Source: a virus
Taxonomy: Duplodnaviria; Caudoviricetes
IMG/VR virus record: IMGVR_UViG_3300012979_000043
Location: 5,615-69,614 of that record
Length of the DNA stretch: 64,000 nt
Reading direction: 5' to 3' (one strand)
Part shown: positions 11,646 to 42,360 of the stretch, piece after piece
Position numbering within the stretch: the stretch's first letter is position 1
Layout of the letters: every line of letters starts with the position of its first letter
Notes under the pieces: generated by a model
The model's database searches: none
Seen by the model: the letters and a program-made list of their open reading frames with translations, nothing else
What the model was told of the DNA's origin: nothing
Translations under genes and position numbers: made by a program

Positions 11646-11664
11646 TAAAATATAACTCAAAAGA

Positions 11665-11692
11665 AAAAAGACCACTTGTTAGTGGTCTTTTT
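11665..11692 (+). terminator. intrinsic terminator
   Basis: AAAAAGACCAC-ttgtta-GTGGTCTTTTT. Confidence 0.75.
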
Positions 11693-11756
11693 GATTAAGT
11701 AATTCTATATTGGAATCAATAAATAATCATATATAATATTATATCAAGGAATTATA

Positions 11757-26203: not shown

Positions 26204-26754
26204 TTAATTGCCTCAATATGATTTTTAATTTTTTGTTTTATTTCTTCCAATGTAACTGGTTCAAAATCATTATTATCAACACCAACATCCCAGCAATTTA
26301 TATTTGCTCTTGCTCTTTTAGAAGTTTCTTCTAACAAATGATATGTTCCATGTGTATGACCATATAAGTGATAACTATCATAATAATATCCATTCCATTC
26401 TGAAATTGGAAAGTGAAATAAAACAACTCTATCATCACCATCTTTAACTTCATGATATGTTACAATATCTTGAAAAGATGCTGACTTGTAATAATTATCT
26501 AATCTATCATGATTACCAGCAATAAGTATTTTTTTACCATTTAATTTAGACATTAATTCTTTAATTTGTTTTGAATTAAAACCCCAACAAAAATCACCTA
26601 AAATATATACAGTATCTTCTTCTTTTACTTTATTATTCCATTTATCGATTAACCCTTGTTGCATATCTTCAACTGATGAAAATGGTCTACCTTTTCCAAA
26701 AGTTAAAATGTTTTTATGTCCAAAATGCTGGTCTGATGTATAAAAAATAGTCAT
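26200..26754 (-). CDS. calcineurin-like phosphoesterase
   Basis: SDQHFGH, LGDF, GNHD, HFP, YGHTH, DVGVD. Confidence 0.88.
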   Translation of the reverse strand: MTIFYTSDQHFGHKNILTFGKGRPFSSVEDMQQGLIDKWNNKVKEEDTVYILGDFCWGFNSKQIKELMSKLNGKKILIAGNHDRLDNYYKSASFQDIVTYHEVKDGDDRVVLFHFPISEWNGYYYDSYHLYGHTHGTYHLLEETSKRARANINCWDVGVDNNDFEPVTLEEIKQKIKNHIEAIK

Positions 26755-26824: not shown

Positions 26825-28147
26825 CTAAATTGATTCTTTTTCAATTTCAATAATATAATTAAAAACTTTATCAGAAATTCCATTGATATGAATAAAACCT
26901 TTTTCATATCCAACACCTTTATTACCATATGGTGCTATATTAATAATATATTTGTTTTTTACAGAACAATCAATTGCACAATCTTGTGTCTGTTCATCTG
27001 TAATCACAATAATTCTATCATATTTACAACTCTTAGTAATATTATCAATAGCATTCCACATATATGTACATCCATGATATTGGGAGTCCCTAATTGATTG
27101 TGCTAGTGCAAATCCACGTCTATTTGGAACTCTGACAACATTATTGGAAAATGTAAAAATATCAATTTCTTCATATAATTCTCTTCCAATCATTGCTAAT
27201 GATTCTGCATAATCAAGTCGTGATGTGAATGCACCATTACTACAACTTGTTTCCATAGATCCAGAAACATCAACTAATATAATTGTTTTTCCATCAATTT
27301 TTGGTTTAATAAATGATTTTAATAATTGATTTTCAATTTCATTTTCATATTTTGGGTTCATTTTTCCACTTCTAATGAAATCAATTGGTAACAATTTATC
27401 ACCATTAATTGTTTTAATTCTATTTTTGATAATATTTACATCAATGCCGACTTTATCCATATTAGAAATATTTTTCAAAAATGCCATATCACCTAATTTA
27501 TTTTTATTCAATAAATTAATCCAAGCATCTTGTTTATTTGATGTTTCTTTGCCAGCAGATGACAATGCAACTTCCCATGTTTCAGCAATTGGTAATGTTC
27601 CATTAATTAATTTATTAATAGCTGTGGTTGATTTTGGATGGCACAAATTTACTACATCTACCAATTTATAATTAGCATCACGATTCCATTTTTGTAATTG
27701 ATATTCATCAAATTTTTCTAATGCCAATGCTATACCTTTTTTCATTTGATTTGGTAGTGGTTTTTTACCATCAATCATATATAATGATATTAACTCACCA
27801 CAATCATCAGGTCTTGTTAAAATTGATGCAATAATATTTTTATTGACAGATTGTCCAGCATTAAATACAGATACAATCATCCACAATGGACAATGCCTTA
27901 ATTTCATATCAAACTTAACTTGTTTGATTAATTCTACAACAGAATCAATTAAATCTTTATCAATACACAGTTTGACAAGTTCCTTGATTCTATCTGTAAT
28001 CTTCTTGCCATTTTCATAAAATTCATCTTCCCACAATAAACAGGACATCACTGACCGTTTTAATTGTTCAAATACATTAATTGTTGATGCTTTACCATTT
28101 TCATATGTTAAGTTTGGTTCTTTTTTTACTGCTTTATTTGTTTTCAT
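26825..28147 (-). CDS. Ro60/TROVE-domain RNA-binding protein (Rsr-like)
   Basis: QLKRSVMSCLLWEDEFYE, LRH.P, RPDD.GE, ETWE..LS, MAFL.N; vWA MIDAS-like DVSGSM and ITDEQ. Confidence 0.92.
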   Translation of the reverse strand: MKTNKAVKKEPNLTYENGKASTINVFEQLKRSVMSCLLWEDEFYENGKKITDRIKELVKLCIDKDLIDSVVELIKQVKFDMKLRHCPLWMIVSVFNAGQSVNKNIIASILTRPDDCGELISLYMIDGKKPLPNQMKKGIALALEKFDEYQLQKWNRDANYKLVDVVNLCHPKSTTAINKLINGTLPIAETWEVALSSAGKETSNKQDAWINLLNKNKLGDMAFLKNISNMDKVGIDVNIIKNRIKTINGDKLLPIDFIRSGKMNPKYENEIENQLLKSFIKPKIDGKTIILVDVSGSMETSCSNGAFTSRLDYAESLAMIGRELYEEIDIFTFSNNVVRVPNRRGFALAQSIRDSQYHGCTYMWNAIDNITKSCKYDRIIVITDEQTQDCAIDCSVKNKYIINIAPYGNKGVGYEKGFIHINGISDKVFNYIIEIEKESI

Positions 28148-28168
28148 ATTCAACACTCCATTATAAGG

Positions 28169-29106: not shown

Positions 29107-29178
29107 TGCATCTATTAGTTTCTGGAATCAATCCTTACTTATAATTCTTACCACGTAAAGGTTAGATGCACAAGAATC
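29107..29178 (-). ncRNA. HDV-like (theta-type) ribozyme Rz1
   Basis: P1 GATTCTT/AAGAATT, P2 TGCATCTA/TAGATGCA, P3 ACC/GGT, L3 TTTACGT, J4/2 GAAACTAA. Confidence 0.8.
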
Positions 29179-29377
29179 AAAAGAAACTTAACCTATTTCT
29201 TTAAGAGTGTTGTTCACACAAGGCATAGAGGACTACTATGATTACCCATTATTTGTAGAATATTGAAAGGAAATAAATGTATATTCTACTATTATCAAAG
29301 TATATTTAACTCTATTCACGACTCAATACTATTGCCGACCCAAACAGATATCAGGTTACAAAAAACATTCCTTTATT
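29179..29377 (-). ncRNA. unassigned structured RNA ending at the Rz1 cleavage site
   Basis: Own promoter; ends pair (TAACCT/AGGTTA); internal stems GGCAATAG/CTATGCC and GTAGAATA/TATTCTAC; no ORF. Confidence 0.45.
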
Positions 29378-29383
29378 AATTAT

Positions 29384-29412
29384 ATAATACCATACTATAT
29401 TTACAATGTCAA
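29384..29412 (-). promoter_or_regulatory. sigma70-type promoter
   Basis: TTGACA-17 nt-TATTAT. Confidence 0.7.
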
Positions 29413-29641
29413 TATTTTTTTACTTTTTTACGGATTCATCATCCAACCTAATTCATCATTAGGAAAAGCACTTTAACATCTCACATCACATACGTGTTCG
29501 TAAATTGGTTTTGTTATATGTATTGCTGTTCATATAACCACCTTTTGTATGCTATCAGAAAGGAAGAAACAAATGTAGAGTGTAAGCAATTATTTACTCG
29601 TCAGTTTCTATTCCTAATAGGTGCTGTCCATTACATTTATC

Positions 29642-29670
29642 TTTATATCATATCTTATTTACAATGTCAA
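29642..29670 (-). promoter_or_regulatory. sigma70-type promoter
   Basis: AAAATAGTTC TTGACA-17 nt-TATAAA. Confidence 0.75.
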
Positions 29671-29680
29671 GAACTATTTT

Positions 29681-30043
29681 TTAAATTAAACCACATTTTT
29701 GAAAAGTAGGTTCAAATACTTCATAAAAATATTCATAATCATCCTCATCTGTATCAGATTTAATAAGTTCAATCAATCCATTAATTGCCTTAATTGCATC
29801 ATCAAGTGTTTCAATGGCAAAACGTTCACCCTCATCTTCATAATCATCATAATCATCTTCATATTCTGAATCTCTATATGAATCACGTTGGTCACCTCGT
29901 GGGTCTAATTGTCCTTCTGTGCCAAAAACATCAGATTCTAATAAATCATCAAAAGCATTATTTAATGGTTGAATTACATTATTATCTTTTGTTGCTTTAA
30001 TATATTCAACAACAGCATCTAATTTTGAAATTAATTTTTCCAT
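29681..30043 (-). CDS. hypothetical acidic protein
   Basis: 120 aa; SDVFGTEGQLDPRGDQRD motif. Confidence 0.7.
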   Translation of the reverse strand: MEKLISKLDAVVEYIKATKDNNVIQPLNNAFDDLLESDVFGTEGQLDPRGDQRDSYRDSEYEDDYDDYEDEGERFAIETLDDAIKAINGLIELIKSDTDEDDYEYFYEVFEPTFQKCGLI

Positions 30044-30055
30044 AAAATATCCCCT

Positions 30056-30220
30056 CTACTTATAATTTTCCACTAATTCTTTTAATTCATAAAACTTTTG
30101 AGATAAAGTCCATGCATCATCCCGACTATCTTCAAACACAATATCCAATGTTGGTAATGCCATTTCTACAAAATCTATTGCTGTTTGAACTATTTGCTCT
30201 TTAATTAATTCTTTATCCAT
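30056..30220 (-). CDS. small hypothetical protein (54 aa, below the ORF-track cut-off)
   Basis: MDKELIKEQIVQTAIDFVEMALP...YK*, GGAG SD. Confidence 0.6.
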   Translation of the reverse strand: MDKELIKEQIVQTAIDFVEMALPTLDIVFEDSRDDAWTLSQKFYELKELVENYK

Positions 30221-30286
30221 AATATATCTCCTTCTTTAACAAAAAGTAGTATATAGGAATAATTATAATATGTCAATTGTTATTTT

Positions 30287-30370
30287 TGGTGACCAAGGAG
30301 AGATTTGAACTCTCACACTTTTCAGTAATGGCTTCTAAGACCATCGTGTCTACCATTCCACCACTTGGCC
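30287..30370 (-). tRNA. tRNA-Leu(TAG)
   Basis: Cloverleaf, anticodon loop CT-TAG-AA, long variable arm, CCA. Confidence 0.93.
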
Positions 30371-30385
30371 AATGAATGTTTGAAC

Positions 30386-30640
30386 CTAACAATAAGTTCT
30401 TTGTTCAAACATTTTTAATTTTTTAATTCTAATAGATTCAATAATTTGTCTTTCAATACTTGTTGGTTTTTGAACCAATGCAACATATTCAGGTGTTGGT
30501 GGCAAACTATTTTGAATTTCAAATTTTTTACCTTCAATACATGGTGGTAATGAATTGTCACAATCAAATGTTGGTGGCAATGTGTTTGCAAATACTGTAT
30601 TAATTGATAACATTGCCAATATTAAACTTTCTTTTTTCAT
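30386..30640 (-). CDS. hypothetical protein with signal peptide
   Basis: MKKESLILAMLSINTVFA. Confidence 0.6.
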   Translation of the reverse strand: MKKESLILAMLSINTVFANTLPPTFDCDNSLPPCIEGKKFEIQNSLPPTPEYVALVQKPTSIERQIIESIRIKKLKMFEQRTYC

Positions 30641-30737
30641 ATAAAAAATCCTTCCTTATTTTAAAGTGTGTGAAAACTTATTTATCATATTAGGAAAGAT
30701 ATTATATATTATATTATTTTTAATGTCAATATATTTT

Positions 30738-30830
30738 TGGCGGAAACAGTAGGATTCGAACCTACGGTGGAATTATTATTCCACGACAGATTAGCAATCT
30801 GCTGGTTTAAACCAACTCACCCATGTTTCC
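30738..30830 (-). tRNA. tRNA-Ser(GCT)
   Basis: Loop TT-GCT-AA, long variable arm, CCA. Confidence 0.93.
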
Positions 30831-31005
30831 ATTTAAGTTGGTTGTTTTATAATTATGCCAGGCAAAAACAACAAAAAACCATAAGATGCCCAATGTTAAC
30901 TACTAGTATTATGTCAACCCATATATGTTAATTCATATGACCCGATTTTCACTATAAAGAAGTGGGGTGAGCATATTAAAAAACTATAATTGTTCAATAT
31001 TTTAT

Positions 31006-31081
31006 TGGGGTGAATGGTGGGTGCTGACCCCACGACCCCTGCAGTCACAATGCAGTATTCTACCGCTGAACTACATTCACC
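31006..31081 (-). tRNA. tRNA-His(GTG)
   Basis: Loop TT-GTG-AC, G-1:C73, atypical T loop GTCAGCA, CCA. Confidence 0.88.
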
Positions 31082-31110
31082 ATAAACTTATTTTATTGAT
31101 TTTAATGAAA

Positions 31111-31443
31111 TTAATGTTTTAATTCATCAATTGTATAATTATTTTTTTGAATGAAAAAATACTTAATATCTTTTTCAATATTATTTAATAAATCATTTGG
31201 GTCTTTATAAGATTTCTTTAATCCATTTACAGAATATAATTGAAAATATGTTTCATCTAATCTTGTTTTAACAGTTAATTTAAGTAATGGCATACCATCA
31301 TCTTTATATCCAGAAATATATAATTCAAACATATTATAATAATTATAAATCTTTAATTTAGGAAATTTAAGTTTTACCATAAAATCATATTCATCAAATA
31401 TTTCTTTAATTGTTTCTTTAAGTTTCAATTTATCAATTTTCAT
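31111..31443 (-). CDS. hypothetical protein
   Basis: 110 aa ORF. Confidence 0.6.
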   Translation of the reverse strand: MKIDKLKLKETIKEIFDEYDFMVKLKFPKLKIYNYYNMFELYISGYKDDGMPLLKLTVKTRLDETYFQLYSVNGLKKSYKDPNDLLNNIEKDIKYFFIQKNNYTIDELKH

Positions 31444-31467
31444 TTTTTATATTTCCTATCAAATAAT

Positions 31468-31544
31468 TGGCGGGAGTGATGGAGCTCGAATCCACGACCT
31501 CAACATTGACAGTGTTGCGCTCTAACCAACTGAGCTACACCCCC
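31468..31544 (-). tRNA. tRNA-Asp(GTC)
   Basis: Loop CT-GTC-AA, CCA. Confidence 0.95.
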
Positions 31545-31560
31545 ATATCTTATAAAACTA

Positions 31561-31589
31561 TTTATATCATAATATCATTCTCTTGTCAA
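31561..31589 (-). promoter_or_regulatory. sigma70-type promoter
   Basis: AAAAAGTTC TTGACA-17 nt-TATAAA. Confidence 0.75.
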
Positions 31590-31609
31590 GAACTTTTTCA
31601 TCATTTATC

Positions 31610-31915
31610 TCACCAATTTTTTGAAAGAAAACCCACATAAGTTTTACCGTATTCTCTTACTAAATAAACTTCACAAGCATATTCAAATTCTCTATATCTA
31701 TCACCACCAGCAATTGGAGCATCTGATGGTAATGTTTTAAGTAATTCTATTAACTGTCCAACATTTTGTATTGGTTGCTTTTGAATTAATTGACCTTTTG
31801 GAGAATTTTGCCATTTTTTATTTTCTTCTGGGTCTAAAATAATAGTTTCATCTAATTGAACACCAGCAAGTCCTAATACTTCATTAATTTGATTATCAAT
31901 GTCATTTTTAATCAT
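31610..31915 (-). CDS. hypothetical protein with head-protein-like leader
   Basis: N-terminal INEVLGLAGVQLDE. Confidence 0.6.
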   Translation of the reverse strand: MIKNDIDNQINEVLGLAGVQLDETIILDPEENKKWQNSPKGQLIQKQPIQNVGQLIELLKTLPSDAPIAGGDRYREFEYACEVYLVREYGKTYVGFLSKNW

Positions 31916-31991
31916 ATAATATTTCCCTTTAATACATTCATATTAAATATTTATTATCATCAGATTTATGTAAGGATTGTTTTAAATAATT

Positions 31992-32067
31992 TGGTGGAGA
32001 ATAAGAGATTCGAACTCTTGACCTTCTGAATGCAAATCAGACGCTCTCCCAACTGAGCTAATCCCCC
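31992..32067 (-). tRNA. tRNA-Ala(TGC)
   Basis: Loop TT-TGC-AT, G3:U70, CCA. Confidence 0.95.
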
Positions 32068-32160
32068 TTAATGTTTTTATTTATTATAATATTTCTTTCT
32101 ATATGTATTAATATATAATTATTTGGAACTAATGTCAGTTATTATTTTTTAAAAAATATA

Positions 32161-32236
<76 letters not shown>

Positions 32237-32256
32237 ATAATCATATTTATATTCTT

Positions 32257-32331
32257 TGGCGACCCTAACGGGATTTGAACCCATATTGCCACATTGAAAG
32301 CGTGGTGTCCTAACCATTAGACGATAGGGTC
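32257..32331 (-). tRNA. tRNA-Glu(TTC)
   Basis: Loop CT-TTC-AA, CCA. Confidence 0.93.
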
Positions 32332-32335
32332 TTGT

Positions 32336-32411
32336 TGCAGGAGTTTATTGGAATTGCACCAATTCGGTGTGCACACCTTTTCTATTTACCTGTGGCTAAC
32401 AGTTTATCTCC
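32336..32411 (-). ncRNA. 76-nt tRNA-like element without a normal anticodon arm
   Basis: GGAG/CTCC partial acceptor, CTGT/ACAG stem, T arm ATTGG-TGCAATT-CCAAT, ends GCA. Confidence 0.45.
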
Positions 32412-32418
32412 ATAGGTA

Positions 32419-32491
32419 TTGCAGAGATGGGATTTGCACCCATGACCTCTGGCGTATGAGACCAGCAAGCTACTATCTGCTCTACTCTGCT
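32419..32491 (-). tRNA. tRNA-Met(CAT), initiator-like
   Basis: A1-A72 mismatch, A11:U24, loop CT-CAT-AC; no encoded CCA. Confidence 0.85.
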
Positions 32492-32499
32492 AAAAAAAT

Positions 32500-32768
32500 T
32501 GGCTGGCTAAACAGGACTCGAACCTGTAACCACCTGATTACTTTACCACTATAGTTTTCACTACCTATTTCTAGTTTGTGGTCTGGACTTTGTCTTCATC
32601 TCATTGAGATGGATGGTATAAAGTCTCTACACATAGATTATTTCTAATCCTTGCTCGGCGTTGCCATTTTAAAGGTTTCACCGACTTAGCCATCTTATCA
32701 CTTATAAATCGCTTTATAAGGCTGCTAATATTTTACAGTCAGGGGCTCTACCATTGAGCTATTAGCCA
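32500..32768 (-). tRNA. tRNA-Asn(GTT) with group I intron
   Basis: Exons 32768-32735 and 32540-32500 join to CCTGA-CT-GT|T-AA-TCAGG; CCA. Confidence 0.9.
32541..32734 (-). mobile_element. group I intron (IC3-like, ORF-less, 194 nt) at tRNA position 35/36
   Basis: 5' exon ends in T, intron ends in G; TCGGTGAAACC, AACGCCGAG, GTAGAGACT, AAAGTCC core elements. Confidence 0.9.
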
Positions 32769-32828
32769 ATAAATTTCATATTCACTATGTCTTTATTTAT
32801 TATATCATACTATATATTTTATAATATG

Positions 32829-33356
32829 TCAAGAATTATTTTTATATTTTTTATAATGACTCATAATTGTATTACGATTTATATTCAATTCTTTTGCAAT
32901 TTGATGATATGATTTATTTTCTACATCTTTCATATATACAATTTTTTCATCAACATCTTTACCATACTTATATGTTTTACTATGGGTTTCATACAAACTA
33001 TTTTTCTTATCTAAAAATTCTTTTGCATGTATTTCTCTATGACAATTAGCACAAACACAAATGCATTTATCTAATTCTTCTTGAACTCGTTTCCAACTTC
33101 TTGTACATCCATCTTTACAGATTCCAAATTCTTTTTGTGTTGGGTCTAAATGATGAAAATCTAATGCTTCAATACACTTATTATATCCACAAATTTCACA
33201 TTTACCACCTTTATATTCAACTGCTTTTTCTTTCAAACGATATCTTCTTATTTGTACAAGTTCTAATCTACATTTTTTACATCTCCATCGTTTATCTTGT
33301 TTTTCATAAACAAAGGGTGTTTCACCATGTATCTGACAAGTTCTAATTTCTTCCAT
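32829..33356 (-). CDS. free-standing HNH endonuclease
   Basis: CEICGY....LDFHHLDP..KEF...CICVCANCHREIH; C-terminal HTH. Confidence 0.88.
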   Translation of the reverse strand: MEEIRTCQIHGETPFVYEKQDKRWRCKKCRLELVQIRRYRLKEKAVEYKGGKCEICGYNKCIEALDFHHLDPTQKEFGICKDGCTRSWKRVQEELDKCICVCANCHREIHAKEFLDKKNSLYETHSKTYKYGKDVDEKIVYMKDVENKSYHQIAKELNINRNTIMSHYKKYKNNS

Positions 33357-33427
33357 AATTTATTATCTCCTCTTTAATGAAAGAATATCACATAACAAAA
33401 TCATTGTCAAGAATTATTTTTTAAAAA

Positions 33428-33505
33428 TGGTAGGGAAGGAAGGACTCGAACCTTCAAACCTGAGATTTATAAGATCCCCGTGCCAACCAGTCACACCGCT
33501 TCCCC
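33428..33505 (-). tRNA. tRNA-Ile(TAT)
   Basis: GGGAT-CT-TAT-AA-ATCTC, A73, CCA. Confidence 0.85.
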
Positions 33506-33742
33506 ATAATTAATTACATACACCGTTTATCCAATGTTTATCTCCAACCAAACATGTGCCAACGGTTAGAAGTGCCTATCCAATGATATGGTCTTGAATG
33601 TTTAATGATTACATATTAACTAATTTACAACAACTTTCTTTATGTTATTAATTATATCATAATTTGAAACCATTGTCAATAGAATTTTTTAATTATTTTT
33701 GGAGTAAGTTGTTTGGAATGATAACATAAACTGTATAATAAA

Positions 33743-34056
33743 TGGCGGACGCAGAAGGATTTGAACCTTCGGATGCCTTACAGCATCGCCAGTTTTCCTT
33801 ACCAACTATAGTTTTCACTACATAGTTATATCTAACTACTTTGTGGTCCGGACTTTACCTTCATCTTCAACATTACTTGTTCAGATGCCTACCGTCAAGT
33901 CTCTACACCTTACATATTTCTATGTCTTGGCTCGGTATTGCCATTTTACAGGTTTCACCGAATTTGATAGGTTCTACTCATATATTTCTATATGGCACTC
34001 GTTTTCTGATTCATTAGGAATAAGACTGGTGCAATCAACCACTCTGCCATACGTCC
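33743..34056 (-). tRNA. tRNA-Ser(TGA) with group I intron
   Basis: Exons 34056-34022 and 33797-33743 join to CCAGT-CT-T|GA-AA-ACTGG; long variable arm, G73, CCA. Confidence 0.9.
33798..34021 (-). mobile_element. group I intron (IC3-like, ORF-less, 224 nt) at tRNA position 34/35
   Basis: TTCGGTGAAACC, GCAATACCGAGCC, GTGTAGAGACTTGAC, GGTAAAGTCC, terminal G. Confidence 0.9.
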
Positions 34057-34098
34057 TTAATACTCATACATATTTACTATTTTTAACAACTTTATTTA

Positions 34099-34476
34099 TT
34101 ACCAAACACCTTTTCTTTTCTTTCTATCACTATTTTTATTTTTAGATTTATATGTTGGTAATTGTGCATCACAATTACAACAAACCAATCTTAAATTTTC
34201 TAATCTATTGTCATTTGCTCTACCATTAATATGGTCTAAAACTAATGGGATTAAACTACCCATCCAATTTTCTTCACCACATATTTCACATTTATGACCT
34301 CTTGTTTCAATAATATATTTTTTTATTTGTCTCCAATCACAACCAATCCCATTATTTTCTTCAACTTGTTTCATTTTTTCATTATGATGATATTTTATCA
34401 TACAATCTTTAGAACAAAATTGTGATGTTTTGTGTTTTGGTTTAAATTCTTTTCCACATTGTTTACAAATATACAT
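34099..34476 (-). CDS. free-standing HNH endonuclease
   Basis: CEICG...LVLDHING...DNRLENLRLVCCNCD. Confidence 0.88.
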   Translation of the reverse strand: MYICKQCGKEFKPKHKTSQFCSKDCMIKYHHNEKMKQVEENNGIGCDWRQIKKYIIETRGHKCEICGEENWMGSLIPLVLDHINGRANDNRLENLRLVCCNCDAQLPTYKSKNKNSDRKKRKGVW

Positions 34477-34539
34477 TTTTTACCCATTCTTTTCATAATC
34501 TTAATATATTATATCACTTTTAATTTATATTTTCAATAA

Positions 34540-34851
34540 TTATTTTGTAAAATCTGAATGATATTTTTCATTAATCAAATCAACATCACCACCAACATAC
34601 CATTCATATTTTCTTACTCTGCTTTGTCTATCTGTATATTTAGAGACAATAGTTGGTTTAAAACCATATTTCTTTTCATATGCTTCTACAAAACAAGGTG
34701 CATCAGCATCTTCTTCCAAATAAAGATATTCACCTCTTACATGAGAAAATCCTGTAATAAGTTTTTCTACACCAACTTCTTTTACTTCAGATTCTTTAAC
34801 TTTTAACCAACCATGTGATGGGTCTGAATACATAGTAAATGATTTTCTCAT
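34540..34851 (-). CDS. conserved hypothetical protein
   Basis: SDPSHGWLKV...YLYLEED.DA. Confidence 0.7.
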   Translation of the reverse strand: MRKSFTMYSDPSHGWLKVKESEVKEVGVEKLITGFSHVRGEYLYLEEDADAPCFVEAYEKKYGFKPTIVSKYTDRQSRVRKYEWYVGGDVDLINEKYHSDFTK

Positions 34852-35242
34852 AATGATTTCCTTTCATCTGTTGTTTTCTTGATAGATGTAATATATCATA
34901 ATTAGAAACCATTGTCAAGAGATTATTTTAAATTATTTGGATGAATGTCATACTTTTTTATATACATCTCACTTTTGACCACTCAAATCTATTACTCCTC
35001 ATTCCACAAAGCATTATTGTGTTAGGTAGATAAGCGTCTGACATTGTTTATTGTTTGGCTTTCCACCAAACTTGCTGGGTTTGGAGATAAGGGAGTATCC
35101 CAACTACATTTTACCTATAACCTAAGTTACAGAACCTTACGGATTTGGTTGCCACCAGACTATTAATATATAGGCTTACCAACAAGGGCATTTCTGAACT
35201 TGATTTGTTACCATTCAACACCAACCTATATATCTCAAAAAA

Positions 35243-35317
35243 TGGAGCGACCAGTGGGAATTGAACCCACATCCTCAGCTTGGAAGGCTGTAATAATAAC
35301 CATTATACTATGGTCGC
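35243..35317 (-). tRNA. tRNA-Gly(TCC)
   Basis: Loop CT-TCC-AA, U73, CCA. Confidence 0.92.
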
Positions 35318-35506
35318 ATTTGCTGTTATGTATTACTTTTTACTTGGTCTATGTTTAGCCTTGGGTAGCAATAGGATAACATAGTCTTTGACATATCACA
35401 GCTTATTCAAAGAAAACTCCTATTAGTGCTTTGGGTGATTACCCCTATCATCTGTGTATTAGATTTACATACATAACATTCTCCAACATAGAAAGAGAAA
35501 TTCAAA

Positions 35507-35580
35507 TGGTTACCTCATCTGGACTCGAACCAAAAATAACAAGATCAAAACCTGCTGTGATACCATTTCACCATGAGGTA
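35507..35580 (-). tRNA. tRNA-Gln(TTG)
   Basis: Loop TT-TTG-AT, U1:A72, CCA. Confidence 0.9.
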
Positions 35581-35585
35581 ATAAA

Positions 35586-35659
35586 TGGTAGACCCTGACA
35601 GTGCTGCCCTGCCGACTCAACCGTGTAAAGGTTATGTGATACTGTTTCACCAAGGGTCC
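35586..35659 (-). tRNA. tRNA-Val(TAC)
   Basis: Loop TT-TAC-AC, atypical T loop GGCAGCA, CCA. Confidence 0.85.
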
Positions 35660-35660
35660 A

Positions 35661-36504
35661 TTATTTTTTATGTTTCATACTTGCTCTATATTTTCCAGAA
35701 CAGTACAAGCAACAAAAATGATTTTTATGTTTTAATCGTGATTTCTTATTAGTTTTTATTTCCTTGCCACAATAATCACAGTTTAGTATATATAATGGTT
35801 TATAATCATCATATAATTCATAAAAATTATTTTGTCCCTTATTATATATTTTTTTTATTATATGTATCAGCTACATATTTCATTTCTTTAATTATATTAT
35901 CATAATACAATAATTTATACTCTTTATCACCAATAGACATTTCTTTAATAGAAACATCACCTCTATCATAGCCCTTTATTTCTGTTATAATTCCTTCAAC
36001 AACAAAGTCAGGATGATATGTATGTTTCTCACCATTTAATTCATATTCAAATACTTCATTACATCTCTTAATATCTATATTATGGTCTAAGCAATAAATT
36101 AAATATGCCAATTCATAAGTACTATCACACCATATACCCTTATAATATCCAGAATATGATTTTCTGTGCCCCTTTAATCTATAACCACCACCCATATCAG
36201 AACCTTTTAATTTTCTTGTTTTATATTGGAGTAATTGACAACAATGATTTGAACAGGTTTTCCTCTGACTTTTTCTATATTTTATTCTTTCAACTTCAAA
36301 TTCTTTACCACATATAACACAATTTCTAATTATTTTATCAAAATGTAAATTTCTCATTGTAATGGATAGCTTTTTTCTATCTACAAATGAATGACTATAT
36401 GCTGATGCACATTTTCTACAACAAAAATCACCAGAAGAATATTTGCTATATTTTTCTGTAAAAACTTTACCACATTGTTTGCATATATATTTTTTATGTT
36501 TCAT
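35661..36504 (-). pseudogene. PD-(D/E)XK (TnsA-N-like) endonuclease, apparently frameshifted at an A8 run
   Basis: GIWCDSTYELAY...YHPDF...EIKGY in 35842..36504; shifted frame 35849-35661 continues FYELYDDYKP...CDYCGKE...CCLYC. Confidence 0.65.
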
Positions 36505-36527
36505 ATATTCATTATATCACAATTTAA

Positions 36528-37187
36528 TTAATCATTCAATAATTTTATAATTCTTTTATCATTTTCACAAAAACATTTAACAGATGTTCTAAAACAATTG
36601 TCTTTCAAAGACTCATGTCTTATACATGATATGTGTTCTTCATTATCAAATAATGCACCACAACACCATATTATAACATTCTTATTGTTGGTATCTTCAA
36701 ATATCAATTTACTTCTTCTATCTTTTTGATTACCTTCATACCCCTCAAATCTATGTATAAATTCGGTTTTATGAGATAATTTACCTGTGATTATTTGACT
36801 ACCACCAAGGAAATAACAACTATCTGCTATTGATAATGCTTTATCAACAAACTTTGTTAATTCTGAAAATGGTGGATTTCCTATTATAAAAACATCTTCC
36901 AATGTATTATATTCATAAAAATCTTGTTTAATAACTTTATCATTTAATGGTTTTAAATCAAAAGATTGACATTTAATACCATATTGTTCTATTACTTCTT
37001 GCCATCTACCATCACCAGCACATGGGTCAATCCATAACTTATTTTTCAATTCAGGTTTTATTTTCAATATTGATTGAACAATTTTATGAATAACATCTGT
37101 TGGAGTTTTATATAATTCTCTACCAAAACCTCTTGTATCAGTTTCTCTTTTGAAAAATGTTAAACTCTGTTCATATGTTCTTTTCAT
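36528..37187 (-). CDS. amino-(adenine)-methyltransferase-like protein
   Basis: IDPCAGDG and IIGNPPF motifs; start moved to MKRTYEQ because the listed N-terminus overlaps tRNA-Leu. Confidence 0.75.
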   Translation of the reverse strand: MKRTYEQSLTFFKRETDTRGFGRELYKTPTDVIHKIVQSILKIKPELKNKLWIDPCAGDGRWQEVIEQYGIKCQSFDLKPLNDKVIKQDFYEYNTLEDVFIIGNPPFSELTKFVDKALSIADSCYFLGGSQIITGKLSHKTEFIHRFEGYEGNQKDRRSKLIFEDTNNKNVIIWCCGALFDNEEHISCIRHESLKDNCFRTSVKCFCENDKRIIKLLND

Positions 37188-37211
37188 AATTATATACCCT
37201 TTGAATGTAAA

Positions 37212-37298
37212 TGGTGGGCATACCCAGAGTCGAACTGGGATGGATTTACATCCGACAGATTTTAAGTCTGTTGCGTCTACCAATTCCGCCATACGCCC
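37212..37298 (-). tRNA. tRNA-Leu(TAA)
   Basis: Loop CT-TAA-AA, long variable arm, CCA. Confidence 0.95.
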
Positions 37299-37305
37299 AA
37301 AAATT

Positions 37306-37381
37306 TGGCCTCCTTACCAGGATTTGAACCTAGAATACAAGTTTAGAAGACTCGTGTGATATCCAATTTCACCATAAGGAG
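37306..37381 (-). tRNA. tRNA-Arg(TCT)
   Basis: Loop CT-TCT-AA, CCA. Confidence 0.92.
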
Positions 37382-37385
37382 TATA

Positions 37386-38066
37386 TTATATATTCTTAAA
37401 AGTTTCTTTGAATTTTTTTACATATTCATCAACTTTATCTTTAATTAATTCCTTAAATTTTGAGTGCCAATATGCATGATGTGTTGGACATAAAGGAATT
37501 AAATTATTAGGATTATTATTATAATGATTTTCATCATAATGATGTACTGCTACAATATTTTCTTCACCACAAATACAGCATTTATGAGGATGATGGAGAA
37601 AACAAATTTTTTGATGTATTTTTGATGTAACACCATGTTTTTCTCTATATTCTTTTCTTTTTTTCTTTTCTAATTCTTGCCTATATCTGGCATTTTTTAA
37701 TTTTTCAATATCACCACCATTTAATTCTACATATTTTTTGAACATTCCATTATTTTCACCACTTCTAAAATATGTATTAGAACAAGCATTTGAACAACAA
37801 ACTTGTTTTGATGCTTTCTTTGATGTTTCTGTAAAAAATTCTTTACCACACACTGGACAAACTTTTTTAATATGATACTTATTAAAATAATTTTCTTTAA
37901 TAATGTCCATATCAAGATTTAGTTCTTTAATTTTAGAATTAATAAATCTCATAGAAGAACCATTATTTGGTATATTAAAATATCTTATAATATCAGATTT
38001 ATTTGTTGCCTCATTAAAAACATTTATAAAATCCTTATCTGTAATTCTATCAAATCTATTATCCAT
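37386..38066 (-). CDS. free-standing HNH endonuclease
   Basis: CCICG....VHHYDENH.NN.P.NLIPLCPTHH; start moved to MDNRF. Confidence 0.85.
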   Translation of the reverse strand: MDNRFDRITDKDFINVFNEATNKSDIIRYFNIPNNGSSMRFINSKIKELNLDMDIIKENYFNKYHIKKVCPVCGKEFFTETSKKASKQVCCSNACSNTYFRSGENNGMFKKYVELNGGDIEKLKNARYRQELEKKKRKEYREKHGVTSKIHQKICFLHHPHKCCICGEENIVAVHHYDENHYNNNPNNLIPLCPTHHAYWHSKFKELIKDKVDEYVKKFKETFKNI

Positions 38067-38096
38067 TATAATAACCCTTAATTTATTTATTAAAAT

Positions 38097-38415
38097 TGGT
38101 CGGAGCAAGGTGATTCGAACACCTGACCACCTGTCAATATGTTATCGTAAAGCTTTTTATCTTTACTTCTTATTGTTTCCAATAAGTTCGGCATACATTT
38201 TCATCTATTAAGATGTCCAGCACTCGTGGGAAGATTATATTTATTCACTTCCTATGCTCTACGATGTTCAATGACCTATTCGCAATTCATTGAATTATCT
38301 CGGTATTATCATTTTACAGACTTCACCGATATTGCTGGATTTATACTATCAAACAATGATAGTAGGGCACAATTTTACCCAAAACAGGTGCGCTACCAGA
38401 CTGCGCTATGCTCCG
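38097..38415 (-). tRNA. tRNA-Pro(TGG) with group I intron
   Basis: Exons 38415-38377 and 38134-38097 join to CCTGT-TT-TGG-GT|ACAGG; CCA. Confidence 0.88.
38135..38376 (-). mobile_element. group I intron (ORF-less, 242 nt) at tRNA position 38/39
   Basis: P1 GGGU/GCCC with U.G at the splice site; TCGGTGAAG, AATACCGAG, P7 GCATA/TATGC; terminal G. Confidence 0.82.
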
Positions 38416-38635
38416 ATTAAAAAATCTCTGGTTCAAGTTTCATTAATATTATATAAAAGATACCCTACGATTCTCCTCTGCAGCATAAATCGGTACTCTA
38501 CTGTAATATATAATAGTTTCTTTAATTTTCCAATAGCAGAAACCCAACCAAAAAACATCTACAATCACAATTTCTTATTCTTATTTTTAACCTATAGGTG
38601 GGAGAAACTGTAAACAACCCCAAAAGGATAATATT

Positions 38636-38709
38636 TGGCAGGAGTAGAAGGATTTGAACCCACACTGACGGTTTTGGAGACCGGTATGCTACCATTACAC
38701 CATACTCCT
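38636..38709 (-). tRNA. tRNA-Trp(CCA)
   Basis: Loop CT-CCA-AA, CCA. Confidence 0.93.
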
Positions 38710-38715
38710 ATAAAA

Positions 38716-38791
38716 TGGTTGTCCTGGGTAGAGTTGAACTACCGTTTATGCTTTATCAGAACATCGTCTTAAACCGTTGGACCACAGGACA
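38716..38791 (-). tRNA. tRNA-Ile(GAT)
   Basis: Loop CT-GAT-AA, CCA. Confidence 0.9.
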
Positions 38792-38796
38792 ATATA

Positions 38797-39345
38797 TTAT
38801 TTTTTTAATTTTAAATATCTTTTTTTGACAGCCTGCCATGAAATATTTAATTCTTTTGCTATTGACTGTATACTTTTATTTTCTTTTTCAATTAAACTAA
38901 TTAAATCATATTTACTCCAATCAACCTTTTGTTGTGATTGACAAGCACATGAGTGACAACAATATTTCTTTGTTATTTCTTTTTCAGAACCACATATAGG
39001 ACAGTTATCATAATATTTTTCAACCCTATGCAATGGGTCATACCCATCAACCAATGTTTCATCAAAATATTTCTTTGTCATATCAATTTGAACCAAACCT
39101 TGATGTATTTCTCTATGACAATTAGCACAAACACAGATGCATTTTTTTAATTCTTTATAGATTTCATCCCATTTTAATATTAAATTATTGGATAATGCTT
39201 TTTCCTTTGTATTTGGATCCAAATGATGAAATTCCAATGCTTCATTACATCTATCATAACCACATAGTTGGCATTTAGAACCAAATCCATCCAACATTAA
39301 CTGTTTTCTGTGTTTCCTAAATATTTTTATATCTTTATATGACAT
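38797..39345 (-). CDS. free-standing HNH endonuclease
   Basis: CQLCGY....LEFHHLDP..KE...CICVCANCHREIH; paralogue of 32829..33356. Confidence 0.88.
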   Translation of the reverse strand: MSYKDIKIFRKHRKQLMLDGFGSKCQLCGYDRCNEALEFHHLDPNTKEKALSNNLILKWDEIYKELKKCICVCANCHREIHQGLVQIDMTKKYFDETLVDGYDPLHRVEKYYDNCPICGSEKEITKKYCCHSCACQSQQKVDWSKYDLISLIEKENKSIQSIAKELNISWQAVKKRYLKLKK

Positions 39346-39586
39346 TGTATAACCCTTTTTAATATATTTATCAAAGAATGATAAATAATATAGATTAAGT
39401 TATATATCATTCTATATAAAATCGCCAAGAGTTTTTGTATTAAGTTTTTTAAATGAAAACTTTGGAGAAACTCTGCCACTAAACCATCTTAAACTATATG
39501 CACATCATTGCAATAATGGTTCTTTATAATTAAGGTTAGCTATTCCTTTATAAAGAATATTGTTGAAGTATATATCCCTTAATAGC

Positions 39587-39656
39587 ATGATATGATAGGA
39601 TTCGAACCTATGACCACCAACATTAAGTCGGTGCTCTACCACTGAGCTACATATCC
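39587..39656 (-). pseudogene. degenerate tRNA
   Basis: Canonical D and T arms but shortened anticodon loop (CCGAC-TTAAT-GTTGG), 1:72 mismatch, no CCA. Confidence 0.6.
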
Positions 39657-39728
39657 ACCAATAAGGCATCAACATTTTTTTATAAGATGTAGTCTCTACC
39701 ATCTGAGATATACATCTTATATGGTATA

Positions 39729-39820
39729 TAATCAATTTTAGTTTCGGTTTTTTATGCAATCAATGCTAAACCTACTTACATTCCCAACCACGTGAAGGTA
39801 TTGATTATCTTTATGGGAAC
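39729..39820 (-). ncRNA. HDV-like (theta-type) ribozyme Rz2
   Basis: P1 GTTCCCA/TGGGAAT, P2 TAATCAAT/ATTGATTA, P3 ACC/GGT, L3 TTCACGT, GAAACTAA. Confidence 0.8.
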
Positions 39821-39855
39821 TTTCATATTCACTATTGTCCAACAACTTGGTTATA

Positions 39856-39884
39856 TTTATATCACAAGTTAAAATTAATGTCAA
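39856..39884 (-). promoter_or_regulatory. sigma70-type promoter
   Basis: AAAAAGTTC TTGACA-17 nt-TATAAA. Confidence 0.75.
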
Positions 39885-39901
39885 GAACTTTTTTATAAAA
39901 A

Positions 39902-39977
39902 TGGTGCAAGGGGTTGGTAACGATCCAACTTCTTAGGTTTTTCAGACCCATGTCTTGACCTCAAATACGACCCTTGC
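39902..39977 (-). tRNA. tRNA-Phe(GAA)
   Basis: Loop CT-GAA-AA, atypical T loop ATCGTTA, CCA. Confidence 0.85.
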
Positions 39978-39983
39978 ATTAAT

Positions 39984-40059
39984 TGGTAGCAATGGGTGGA
40001 CTTGCACCACCACTCTTATCCTTATGAGGGATATGCTTTACTATTTAAGCTACATTGCC
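39984..40059 (-). tRNA. tRNA-Met(CAT), elongator or Ile2
   Basis: TATCC-CT-CAT-AA-GGATA, CCA. Confidence 0.88.
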
Positions 40060-40064
40060 ATTCT

Positions 40065-40138
40065 TGGAGGTAGGTGTGAGAGTCGAACTCACCTATGCAG
40101 TTTTGCAGACTGCCATCTAACCGATTGATTAACCTACC
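40065..40138 (-). tRNA. tRNA-Cys(GCA)
   Basis: Loop CT-GCA-AA, U73, CCA. Confidence 0.92.
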
Positions 40139-40346
40139 ATTTGAATAACCATCTTTACGTAATGGTTGTGAATGGTTGTAATAACGGAAATTCTGTTTTG
40201 GATAATTATTTCAAACCCAATGTTTACGTCAGACCAAACATCAAAAAGCCAATGTTTTCATGATAACATTAAACATAAGGGGTTCTTAACTTGACAACCC
40301 CAATAAACGGGAAATTTTTCAACCTATGGCATCTCCTAACCAAACT

Positions 40347-40822
40347 CTTGTAATTGTTAAATACTATTGGCACATAACATATTTACTTTATAACATAATA
40401 AAAATCACTTGTCAAGTATTATTTCAAAAAAGTTTTATGATAATATACCTACTACACAACCGTATTATTATCAATGGCATTTAGTTTATTAGATAGTAGG
40501 CTCTATAAACATAACTTTATAACCATATAATAAGGAAAGAGTTGCGACCTCTAATTACGTTGCACTGATTTGAACAGATTTCTTATCATAAACTGATAAT
40601 GTTTTACATAAACTATCATACAACCTTATAATTGTTTAATACCATTGGCACACAAGTTAATTACTCTTATGGCTTATGATAATGTGATCATCATTATCTC
40701 TATTTGTTAATAAACCTATCAATTTTTTCTCTCCAACAGTTTTCACCTGATTTCAATACTAAAATTGATGTGCTATTGATACATCTACACCATATTAACA
40801 TCAATGGTATTAAATAATTATA
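40347..40822. repeat. 28-bp direct repeat with an inverted third copy
   Basis: 40347-40374 vs 40625-40652 (25/28 identical); 40801-40822 is an inverted copy (20/22). Confidence 0.7.
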
Positions 40823-40828
40823 AAAAAT

Positions 40829-40906
40829 TGGTGAGGGCAGGGGGACTCGAACCCATCCGACCCACAGGTTAAAAGCCTGTTGCTCTACCAACTGAGCTAT
40901 ACCCCC
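40829..40906 (-). tRNA. tRNA-Lys(TTT)
   Basis: Loop CT-TTT-AA; 2 extra nt in the T stem; CCA. Confidence 0.9.
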
Positions 40907-40942
40907 AATCAAAACTTCATTTTGTGACTTAGTTCAATAAAT

Positions 40943-41014
40943 TAGCAAATTAGTTTCATTCATAAATGAATTACTTATACCCAATACCACGTAAAGGTTT
41001 TGCTATTATTGGGC
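40943..41014 (-). ncRNA. HDV-like theta ribozyme Rz3 at the tRNA-Tyr 3' end
   Basis: G1 directly follows discriminator A73; P1 GCCCAAT/ATTGGGT, P2 TAGCAAA/TTTGCTA, L3 TTTACGT, GAAACTAA. Confidence 0.88.
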
Positions 41015-41097
41015 TGGACAGGGATGGATTCGAACCACCGAACTCCGAAGAGGTCAGGTTTACAGCCTGATGCATTTAGCCACTCTGCCACCTGTCC
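41015..41097 (-). tRNA. tRNA-Tyr(GTA)
   Basis: Loop CT-GTA-AA, long variable arm, no encoded CCA. Confidence 0.93.
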
Positions 41098-41106
41098 ATT
41101 TAAAAT

Positions 41107-41170
41107 TGGTTGCGAGTTCTAGGGAGCTACCCTAGAATTTCTTCGTTAATGAAACGAAAAGCTACTCGCA
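41107..41170 (-). ncRNA. D-armless, CCA-ended tRNA-like RNA (64 nt)
   Basis: TGCGAGT/ACTCGCA-A-CCA, TTCGT-TTCATTA-ACGAA arm, TCTAGGG-TAGCT-CCCTAGA arm. Confidence 0.65.
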
Positions 41171-41182
41171 TAAAAATAATTA

Positions 41183-41263
41183 TATAAACTCTTGATGGAG
41201 TTGAACCATAACTGTCGTTCTTTTTCAAGAAAGGATATTACCCAATATCTGCAAGAGTTTATA
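41183..41263 (-). ncRNA. tRNA-like/pseudo-tRNA element
   Basis: 12-bp terminal stem TATAAACTCTTG/CAAGAGTTTATA, GATATT/AATATC arm, ATGG-TTCAACT-CCAT T arm; weak anticodon arm, no CCA. Confidence 0.5.
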
Positions 41264-41373
41264 AAAAATACTTTAATTAAAAAATGACTGACATTCTATA
41301 CTTGAACTATTAGATGTACACAACCCACCCCGATTTTGTCACTTCCACAAAAAGCTTCAATCATTTTTTATTA

Positions 41374-41476
41374 GATGATATTTAGTTTCAGTTACAACAC
41401 TGATCAGCAATTGTTAGAGTTAATAACTCACCTACTCACATTCTCCACCACGTGAAGGTAATCATCATTGGAGAAC
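41374..41476 (-). ncRNA. HDV-like ribozyme Rz4
   Basis: P1 GTTCTCC/GGAGAAT, P2 GATGAT/ATCATC, L3 TTCACGT, GAAACTAA. Confidence 0.78.
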
Positions 41477-41749
41477 TATGGTGGTAAATGTATAGAATAT
41501 CCACTAATGGTTGATTACTTCCTTTAGCAATCATTCTATACCCACACATAATAGAACCTCTCTATCACTCGTTCTACAGAGCGTCCCACTTCCCTATTTA
41601 AGCACAAACTCTGGGCCCGAATCATCATCTATTTGATAAGGCAGGTTATGAATTATCTTAGTGCATTCTGCCAATGTCTTTCCATTAGTCCATAGTCTTT
41701 CCCATTGTATAACAATGACTTCATAGTAATCAACTGTCCATTCATTATT

Positions 41750-41838
41750 TATGACTTTTAGTTTCATCATAAGGATGCATCCTATATGATTACTTACATT
41801 CCTCACCAACGAGAAGGTAGTCATATTATTTGAGGAAC
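41750..41838 (-). ncRNA. HDV-like ribozyme Rz5
   Basis: P1 GTTCCTC/GAGGAAT, P2 TATGACT/AGTCATA, L3 TTCTCGTT, P4 ATCATA/TATGAT, GAAACTAA. Confidence 0.8.
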
Positions 41839-41902
41839 ACTTTATTATACATAGGGTGATGCAAATGTAAGGAAAAATCATCACCCAACATATAAAAAAT
41901 AG

Positions 41903-42040
41903 AAGGACAATGCCACAACACGATTATTATCTCTCAACTATGCCACCCACTATATAATATAGTCATCATAGGTTCTTTTTACGAGTTCCTAAATAACCCT
42001 TACTAAACAAACATTGTGGTGTTTGTTATTCTGTGTCCTT
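41903..42040 (-). ncRNA. unassigned structured RNA between Rz6 and Rz5
   Basis: AAGGACA/TGTCCTT closing stem; hairpin loop CCACAA complementary to distal TTGTGG. Confidence 0.45.
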
Positions 42041-42172
42041 TGTATCAATTAGTTTCCACTGACAACTCTAAACAGAGACCTTCTGCTCTCTCCACTGCAG
42101 ATATGCTTTATTAACACCATCCATCAGGTACTTATGTCTTAAACCAACGTAAAGGTTTGATACATTTAAGAC
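42041..42172 (-). ncRNA. HDV-like ribozyme Rz6 (long P4)
   Basis: P1 GTCTTAA/TTAAGAC, P2 TGTATCAA/TTGATACA, L3 TTTACGTT, GAAACTAA. Confidence 0.78.
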
Positions 42173-42212
42173 TTTCTTATTCACTAAATTCAACAACCGT
42201 TTTGATATATTC

Positions 42213-42241
42213 TTTATATCACTTTTTGAAACCAATGTCAA
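42213..42241 (-). promoter_or_regulatory. sigma70-type promoter of the ribozyme cassette
   Basis: AAAAAAGTTC TTGACA-17 nt-TATAAA. Confidence 0.75.
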
Positions 42242-42272
42242 GAACTTTTTTATTTCTTTTTTGATTTCTTTT

Positions 42273-42360
42273 TTATCAAATGAAACGCAACCAATCTGCA
42301 TGCTCCTACAAGTTTTTAAACTCTGAGTTGGACTCTCACCAACCTCTTTTCATCTGATAA
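42273..42360 (-). ncRNA. second permuted tRNA-like (YrlA-like) RNA
   Basis: TTATCAGATGAA/TTCATTTGATAA closing stem, T arm GTTGG-TGAGAGT-CCAAC, then a hairpin, then D-like TGCA-GATTGGT-TGCG. Confidence 0.5.

Follow-up and report, generated by a model that had tools for sequence, protein, structure and literature searches.

Six elements, here named Rz1 to Rz6, in the RNA island of a virus record (Caudoviricetes; IMG/VR record IMGVR_UViG_3300012979_000043) are interpreted, with a probability of about 0.7, as self-cleaving ribozymes of the hepatitis delta virus (HDV)-like type; they would form part of a P4-bearing subfamily that shares the catalytic core of the theta ribozymes and would act as end-makers for the island. 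Judged from sequence, the copies most likely chop the long tRNA and non-coding transcripts of the phage into defined pieces. The stretch analysed, hereafter the window, comprises 64 kilobases (kb) of the 69.6-kb record, which is taken to be a fragment of a jumbo phage because its CheckV completeness is 19%, and has a GC content of 23–34%. Twenty-one tRNA genes lie on the minus strand at ~29–42 kb of the window. All six elements are co-oriented with these genes and lie downstream of sigma-70-type promoters with an extended −10 box (TTGACA-N14-TGNTATAA), which are enriched in the window (19 vs 1.4 expected) and stand nearly all on the minus strand.

A strict core pattern, ACC-TTYWCGT(N)-GGT-N7-RTRAGTA, matches exactly six sites in the window, all of them on the minus strand, and none in 100 shuffles. 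The initial annotation had proposed six minus-strand copies of a full HDV-like double pseudoknot, and on this the strict pattern, a reading of the sequence and a descriptor script agree; the latter two give the same nested order in all six, P1-P2-P3-L3-P3′-P1′-J1/4-P4-J4/2-P2′. Rz1 (29107–29178, 72 nucleotides, nt) begins with G1 at 29178 and has its putative catalytic C at 29118; the corresponding positions are 39820 and 39741 in Rz2 (39728–39820, 93 nt), 41014 and 40953 in Rz3 (40943–41014, 72 nt), 41476 and 41385 in Rz4 (41374–41476, 103 nt), 41838 and 41761 in Rz5 (41750–41838, 89 nt) and 42172 and 42052 in Rz6 (42041–42172, 132 nt). As had been described, P1 is a perfect helix of 7 base pairs (bp) that opens with G1, paired as G.U in Rz1–Rz5 and as G-C in Rz6, and both P1 and P2 (6–9 bp) differ in sequence from copy to copy yet pair in each. 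P3 ACC/GGT, L3 TT[TC][AT]CGT(T), RTRAGTA and a variable P4 are likewise present in every copy, the P4 region spanning 13–72 nt (43 nt in Rz4, and 72 nt, branched, in Rz6). The motif GAAACTAA sits 0–2 nt before P2′ in all six and supplies GAAAC-UAA, the C of which starts J4/2. The third position of L3 pairs with the base after P1′, as T-A in Rz1, Rz3 and Rz6 and as C-G in Rz2, Rz4 and Rz5, in keeping with the covariation first noted; P1.1 as a whole reads UU/AU or UC/GU. The P4 loop of Rz2 (39775–39755, minus strand) contains ATTGATT, identical to the 7 nt of its own P2′ strand, and P2 of this copy may pair with the loop instead, be it as a folding trap, as a switch or by chance.

The architecture recurs in other phages. 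In a scan of IMG/VR, 108 loci matched the core pattern, most of them with the complete architecture and with unrelated P1 and P2 sequences. A covariance model built from 14 relatives in other phage contigs, with no window sequence included, and searched with filters off finds the six copies at 34–60 bits (Rz1, 51.6; Rz2, 50.6; Rz3, 60.2; Rz4, 55.5; Rz5, 49.5; Rz6, 34.4) with E-values of 1e-8 to 5e-4, the next match scoring 26 bits; in Rz6, the 5′ domain alone was aligned correctly. That next match, at 11657–11727, was considered as a seventh copy and rejected, as it is a terminator hairpin. Neither did a looser descriptor (any 3-bp P3, L3 T...CG..) reveal a seventh copy in the window, the reversed-window control giving two matches. 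MAFFT alone misaligned the six copies because the length of P4 varies; our own descriptor and model-based alignment were used instead.

Over 79 sources, that is the window and 78 fetched loci, the model gave 96 matches, of which 80 are distinct. Among these 80 members, 98.1% of the P1, P3 and P4 cells are paired, as compared with 59% in shuffles and 30–52% when the partner strand is slid; 414 cells are changed on both sides, as compared with 120 in shuffles, a value reached by 0 of 500 shuffles, and covariation is seen at 7/7 pairs of P1 and 3/3 pairs of P4. By a segment-based count, P1 takes 43 different sequences in 51 members, and pairing stands at 98% vs 48% when partners are swapped. Across the 51 unique sequences, the single pair of P1.1 is T-A in 39, C-G in 10, G-C in one and a mismatch in one; at the second position U stands opposite U in 51/51, and C opposite C in locus L069:3893. 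All 51 sequences, a set selected by pattern and re-anchored on the AAAC motif, have C where J4/2 begins. When P2′ is located by its pairing with P2 alone, GAAAC-NAA immediately precedes it in most unique sequences. This conservation of the C fits the catalytic role predicted for it. Three to six copies per tRNA region occur in L015, L093, L071, L069 and L008, and the multi-copy layout is therefore typical of the family. Comparison of positions 40900–42300 with GenBank phages by BLAST gave tRNA-Tyr as the sole match, and the covariance model had no match in the tRNA region of phage T4.

The HDV-like topology is well supported in silico, since P1, P4 and P1.1 covary across 80 relatives, the J4/2 C is in place and Rz3 aligns to two Rfam models. 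Indeed, Rz3 scores 22.7 bits against RF02682 and 17.5 bits against RF01787 (gathering scores 44 and 37) and spans both models in register, with G1 at or adjoining the first base and CUAA on the catalytic C of the models. The initial annotation had gone further and called the copies theta-type. Theta ribozymes are minimal HDV-like ribozymes of gut Caudoviricetes (Kienbeck et al. 2024, PMC10879173). Their published layout (Supplementary Data 2 and 4) comprises P1 of 6–7 nt, J1/2, P2 of 7 nt, RCC, U, a two-base P1.1 (CC, UC or GC), NCGY, GGY and P1′, followed by the two-base P1.1 partner, a linker, CNAA and P2′; the linker from P1.1′ to J4/2 measures 4–8 nt, or up to ~17 nt in the first version of the motif, and the tabulated P1.1 combinations are CC/GG, UC/GA and GC/GC. 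The theta core is found in all six copies, which carry ACC/GGU, UUYWCGU(U) and CUAA where theta has P3 RCC/GGY, L3 U-NN-NCGY and J4/2 CNAA, and to this extent the label stands. The minimal form is absent, the region made up of RAGUA, P4 and GAAA being 22–81 nt long, and none of the six has a two-pair P1.1. With its linker capped at 8 or at 17 nt, a rebuilt theta descriptor gave no match in the window, not even when P1.1 was unconstrained, and it found three of the six copies only once the linker was allowed to reach 90 nt. In the portions of the supplementary tables of PMC10879173 that were compared, no ribozyme has a P1 strand identical to that of any of the six copies; the single text match there, GATTCTT, lies in the P1′ strand of an unrelated theta sequence. 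Because the second position of P1.1 is U.U and a real P4 is framed by RAGUA...GAAA, the copies are best filed as putative HDV-like ribozymes that form a P4-bearing group sister to theta, and not as published theta ribozymes.

Three contexts recur around the copies. Rz3 alone abuts a tRNA, as the initial annotation had remarked. Its G1 directly follows the discriminator A (41015) of tRNA-Tyr(GUA) (41015–41097, minus strand), which, unlike the neighbouring tRNAs of the window, does not encode CCA and whose 3′ end would be made by Rz3. A predicted cleavage site no more than 5 nt from the 3′ end of a tRNA, the trait of the tRNA-associated theta subgroup, is thus seen in one of the six window copies, and placement at a tRNA 3′ end in 22 of the 80 distinct members; in these, the predicted cut follows the discriminator, N73 plus C or an encoded CCA.

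Since the predicted cut lies 5′ of the ribozyme itself, it would set the 3′ end of the upstream RNA, and upstream of the members that are not at tRNAs two classes of sequence recur: a terminal hairpin or a conserved leader. In the hairpin class, a stable hairpin ends 0–3 nt before the predicted cut. The 32 nt upstream of the non-tRNA members have a mean minimum free energy (MFE) of −5.8 kcal/mol, whereas random windows average −2.5 kcal/mol (p = 7e-7); a fold of −5 kcal/mol or better is reached by 46% of the former and by 16% of the latter. Rz1 represents this class. It is preceded by a structured RNA of ~200 nt poor in open reading frames (ORFs; 29179–29377, minus strand), the 3′ end of which it would set; the last 24 nt of this RNA form a hairpin ending 1 nt before the predicted cut, and a sigma-70-type extended −10 promoter lies upstream of the unit (29384–29412, minus strand) and would drive it. 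A homologue of the ~200-nt RNA in L014, L034 and L040 (L014:1708–1960, minus strand) also ends at a ribozyme, one with different P1 and P2, and between phages a 9-bp stem of the RNA shows a compensatory change from A-T to T-A. The RNA has no match in Rfam; its conserved blocks include GGTCGGCAATARTRTTGAGTCGT.

In the leader class, to which Rz2 and Rz6 belong, the predicted cut follows a conserved unstructured leader, GAGTTGTTAGA-N2-3-TAGTGAATATGA. The Rz2 unit (39821–39884, minus strand) consists of the promoter TTGACA-N14-TGTGATATAA (39884–39857) and a leader of ~29 nt, GTTGTTGGACAATAGTGAATATGAAA, that ends at the Rz2 cut site; the Rz6 unit (42173–42241, minus strand) consists of TTGACA-N14-AGTGATATAA (42241–42214) and a leader of ~34 nt, GTTGTTGAATTTAGTGAATAAGAAA, that ends at the Rz6 cut site. 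The transcription start predicted for the extended −10 promoter lies 29–34 nt from the ribozyme in both units. The same promoter–leader–ribozyme unit is present in L024, L029 and L069, and a leader–ribozyme unit without an obvious sigma-70 promoter in L018, L028, L031 and L066. The conserved leader sequence of ~25 nt, at 42197–42173 and 39846–39821 (minus strand), in L024:750–772 and in L118, is common to divergent phages and in most cases has its end at a predicted ribozyme cut. In L138 the leader stands directly before a tRNA, without a ribozyme, and the leader is therefore assigned to the promoter rather than to the ribozyme; candidate roles for it are those of a small RNA that is released, an operator and an element of the initial transcript. 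A scan of viral contigs with the leader motif returned mostly false positives in coding sequence, and only L024, L118 and L138 were informative. The remaining copies, Rz4 and Rz5, have weak upstream structure.

That the copies serve as general RNA punctuation, as had been proposed, is plausible on these sequence grounds, and the recurrence of the non-tRNA contexts in relatives speaks for it; the idea is less new than it had seemed. Theta ribozymes had been portrayed in the initial annotation as mainly cutters of tRNA trailers linked to suppressor tRNAs. They are indeed often found at tRNA 3′ ends, but 42% of their occurrences in annotated genomes lie away from tRNAs and only 20% adjoin suppressor tRNAs; most of the non-tRNA occurrences are in non-coding regions, in sense orientation and with their function unexplained (PMC10879173). 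Punctuation away from tRNAs was therefore already known, albeit without an explanation.

As to how the ribozymes would work, each copy, with the core shared with theta (P3 ACC/GGU, L3 U-U-Y-N-C-G-U and J4/2 C-U-A-A), would fold while being transcribed and cut directly 5′ of its G1. The predicted cut would leave a 2′,3′-cyclic phosphate on the upstream RNA and a 5′-OH on the ribozyme and the RNA downstream. Rz3 would free the CCA-less tRNA-Tyr at its discriminator base, and the cyclic phosphate would have to come off before CCA could be added. Rz1 would set the 3′ end of the conserved, hairpin-terminated RNA of ~200 nt upstream of a Ro60 gene. Rz2 and Rz6 would detach a promoter-proximal leader of ~30 nt, together with its 5′ triphosphate, from RNA that RNase P cannot trim. 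Finally, given the spacing of the tandem copies (334 nt from Rz6 to Rz5, 362 nt from Rz5 to Rz4 and 462 nt from Rz4 to Rz3), these four would split one transcript of ~1.2 kb into pieces of those sizes.

Several observations weigh against this interpretation. No HDV-like model of Rfam 15 reaches its gathering score in the window, where tRNAs are the only matches at that score, and five of the six copies go undetected by these models even at E-values up to 10; the search with HDV-like models proposed in the initial annotation thus yielded only the full-length, sub-threshold alignments of Rz3. P1.1 consists of one Watson–Crick pair and not two. MFE folding without pseudoknots is uninformative, recovering P4 together with either P1 or P2, and its z-scores, −0.5 to −2.3, are weak. 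The alignment used to count covariation was fitted to the structure of the model and so favours that structure. A single transcript spanning Rz6 to Rz3 is presumed from the absence of a strong terminator. Last, the pair at the cleavage site is C-G in 30, G-C in 21, G.U in 18 and A-U in nine of the 80 distinct members, so that the G1.U wobble typical of HDV-like ribozymes is not conserved family-wide. Mutagenesis of HDV has shown a pyrimidine at +1 to be unfavourable for catalysis. C1 is nearly limited to contexts other than tRNA ends (27/51 there vs 1/22 at tRNA ends), and some members may accordingly cleave slowly, be regulated or lack activity. Many of the C1 members, examples of which are L055:6447–6518 and L042:9721–9789, follow a conserved hairpin, NNCACAGCRGTGNN.

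The frequency of C-G at the cleavage site, the presence of G1 in only 39 of the 80 members and the near-confinement of C1 to non-tRNA contexts would all fit elements that adopted the HDV-like fold and cleaved slowly or not at all, serving instead as a compact structural module, for example a block to 5′–3′ exonucleases or a protein-binding site at the 5′ ends of phage RNAs. We nevertheless consider this improbable. G1 is present in every window copy, in five as part of the canonical G.U pair, and C1 therefore weakens the claim for the family more than that for the window. The C of GAAAC-NAA, invariant in the pattern-selected sequences, is retained in most when P2′ is located without the motif; Rz3 and 21 relatives are placed exactly where a cut makes a tRNA 3′ end; and theta ribozymes with a matching core have been shown experimentally to cleave (PMC10879173). 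A different objection would be that the copies are selfish-DNA passengers without function for the phage, either a ribozyme with a homing nuclease or a mobile promoter–leader–ribozyme cassette. The promoter–leader–ribozyme unit is indeed found at two places in the window and in other phages as well, and two of the small ORFs interspersed among the island tRNAs are HNH-type genes. However, the 1.6 kb to either side of each copy contain no HNH or other nuclease ORF, for which reason a ribozyme-plus-HNH cassette was rejected for the window; the leader of L138 occurs without a ribozyme; and P1 and P2 are wholly different between copies while the core is kept, which argues for long-term selection on the fold and not for recent copying. 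This explanation is accordingly the one to which we give the least credence.

Alternatively, pairs of ribozymes may release pieces (42172–41839 and 41838–41477) that are circularised or re-joined by an RtcB-type ligase, giving stable circular phage RNAs. The tandem, co-oriented copies 334 and 362 nt apart would suit such a scheme, as would the genes found nearby and in relatives. Just downstream of the Rz1 unit and the island, the window encodes a Ro60 homologue (26825–28156, minus strand; TROVE 7.9e-11, Ro60 vWA 2e-5), and genes for RtcB, a Ro60 homologue and a CCA-adding-type nucleotidyltransferase occur together in two records of related jumbo phages that carry family members (the contigs of L078 and L020); this gene set resembles the RNA-repair set of the bacterial rsr-rtcB operon. 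On the other hand, no pairing was seen that would join the ends of the pieces, and RtcB, Ro60 and a CCA-adding enzyme are all missing from the complete records of two relatives in which family members occur (the contigs of L069 and L029). Neither RtcB nor a CCA-adding enzyme was found in the 69.6-kb record, an absence that is uninformative because the record covers 19% of the genome. Circularisation is thus very unlikely in our estimation. As the gene set is present in two relatives and absent from two others, the link to RNA repair is suggestive and not general. A wider version of the end-making reading would make the P4-bearing family a general, terminator-independent means of forming ends for a non-coding RNA programme tied to a Ro60/RtcB/CCA-enzyme module, releasing hairpin-ended Ro60 cargo or Y-RNA-like cargo, a functional leader of ~30 nt with a cyclic phosphate, and pieces circularised by RtcB; we regard this extension as speculative and rather unlikely. 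The plainer reading, in which self-cleaving copies make the ends of the island's RNAs, is preferred.

The Ro60 homologue is followed by a gene for a calcineurin-like metallophosphoesterase of 184 amino acids (26200–26754, minus strand). Its PDB match is only to an uncharacterised Aquifex protein and its NCBIfam match is weak and sub-threshold; that it removes cyclic phosphates, as an end-healing enzyme might, is a guess. Between Rz4 and tRNA-Tyr lie two tRNA-like elements without an ARAGORN call. One (41290–41205, minus strand) has an acceptor-like stem CTCTTG/CAAGAG, a D-like arm and a T-arm with GGTTCAACTCC; the other (41170–41107, minus strand) has a stem GCGAGT/ACTCGC, two 8-bp hairpins and an encoded ACCA end. 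A further tRNA, of 70 nt (39587–39656, minus strand), combines the Leu anticodon UAA with a class I body, that is without a long variable arm, and with U at position 37; a ribozyme precedes it by 73 nt in the window (Rz2) and by 5 nt in L069 (from ~5097 onward). A normal class II tRNA-Leu(UAA) is also present, at 37212–37298.

The earlier remark that no recoding is visible holds for this fragment. None of the 21 tRNAs of the window is a suppressor, and code 11 leaves the long ORFs, those of tail-fibre-like genes included, uninterrupted. ORF coverage with that code is 76.4%, as compared with 80.6% with TAG read through and 79.8% with TGA read through; gains this small and this similar are expected from the removal of any stop codon. 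In the lack of a suppressor tRNA, recoding was therefore rejected.

Relative to the literature found, four things appear to be new: a P4-bearing subfamily with the RAGUA...GAAA frame and a P1.1 of one pair; the deployment of this subfamily in standard-code jumbo phages, with as many as six copies in an RNA island; the recurrence of two contexts away from tRNAs; and the C1 variants. If the copies cleave, phage HDV-like ribozymes extend beyond the minimal theta form and beyond the suppressor tRNAs of recoded gut phages; a P4-bearing subfamily would be used many times per standard-code jumbo-phage genome and would end tRNAs, hairpin-ended non-coding RNAs and leaders. The question left open by the theta paper, namely the role of ribozymes away from tRNAs, would gain concrete cases that can be tested. 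The covariance model and the ~80 sequences supplied here cover members missed by current descriptors and by Rfam, and the C1 variants, if active, would loosen a rule of HDV-like catalysis.

Among known systems, theta ribozymes resemble the window copies in the order of the fold, in P3 ACC/GGU, L3 U-NN-NCGU and J4/2 CUAA, and in their setting, since they too occur in phages, often cut the 3′ ends of CCA-less tRNAs and have a large share in non-tRNA, non-coding positions. They differ in having no P4 but a linker of 4–8 nt, where the window copies have a P4 of 13–72 nt framed by RAGUA...GAAA, and in a P1.1 of two pairs, where the window copies have one Watson–Crick pair and a U.U. The phage differs as well: the fragment studied here comes from a jumbo phage, is very rich in AT, has promoters of the sigma-70 type and shows neither a suppressor tRNA nor signs of recoding. 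RF02682 (drz-Fpra-1, from Faecalibacterium prausnitzii) and RF01787 (drz-agam-1) share with the copies the possession of P4, and G1, P3/L3 and CUAA of Rz3 are in register with them; their J1/4 and the base of their P4 are unlike those of the window copies. The genomic and antigenomic ribozymes of HDV have the same nested double pseudoknot, G.U at the base of P1 and C at the start of J4/2, and they cut 5′ of G1, as is predicted here. The window copies, however, are far more AT-rich, have shorter P2 and P4 and only one pair in P1.1, and they would cut the transcripts of a DNA phage into pieces, whereas HDV cleaves the product of rolling-circle replication. RNase Z and RNase P do the same job that is proposed here, freeing defined RNAs from polycistronic transcripts of tRNAs and non-coding RNAs; the cutter in the window would instead be an RNA encoded in cis, leaving a 2′,3′-cyclic phosphate to be removed before CCA addition.

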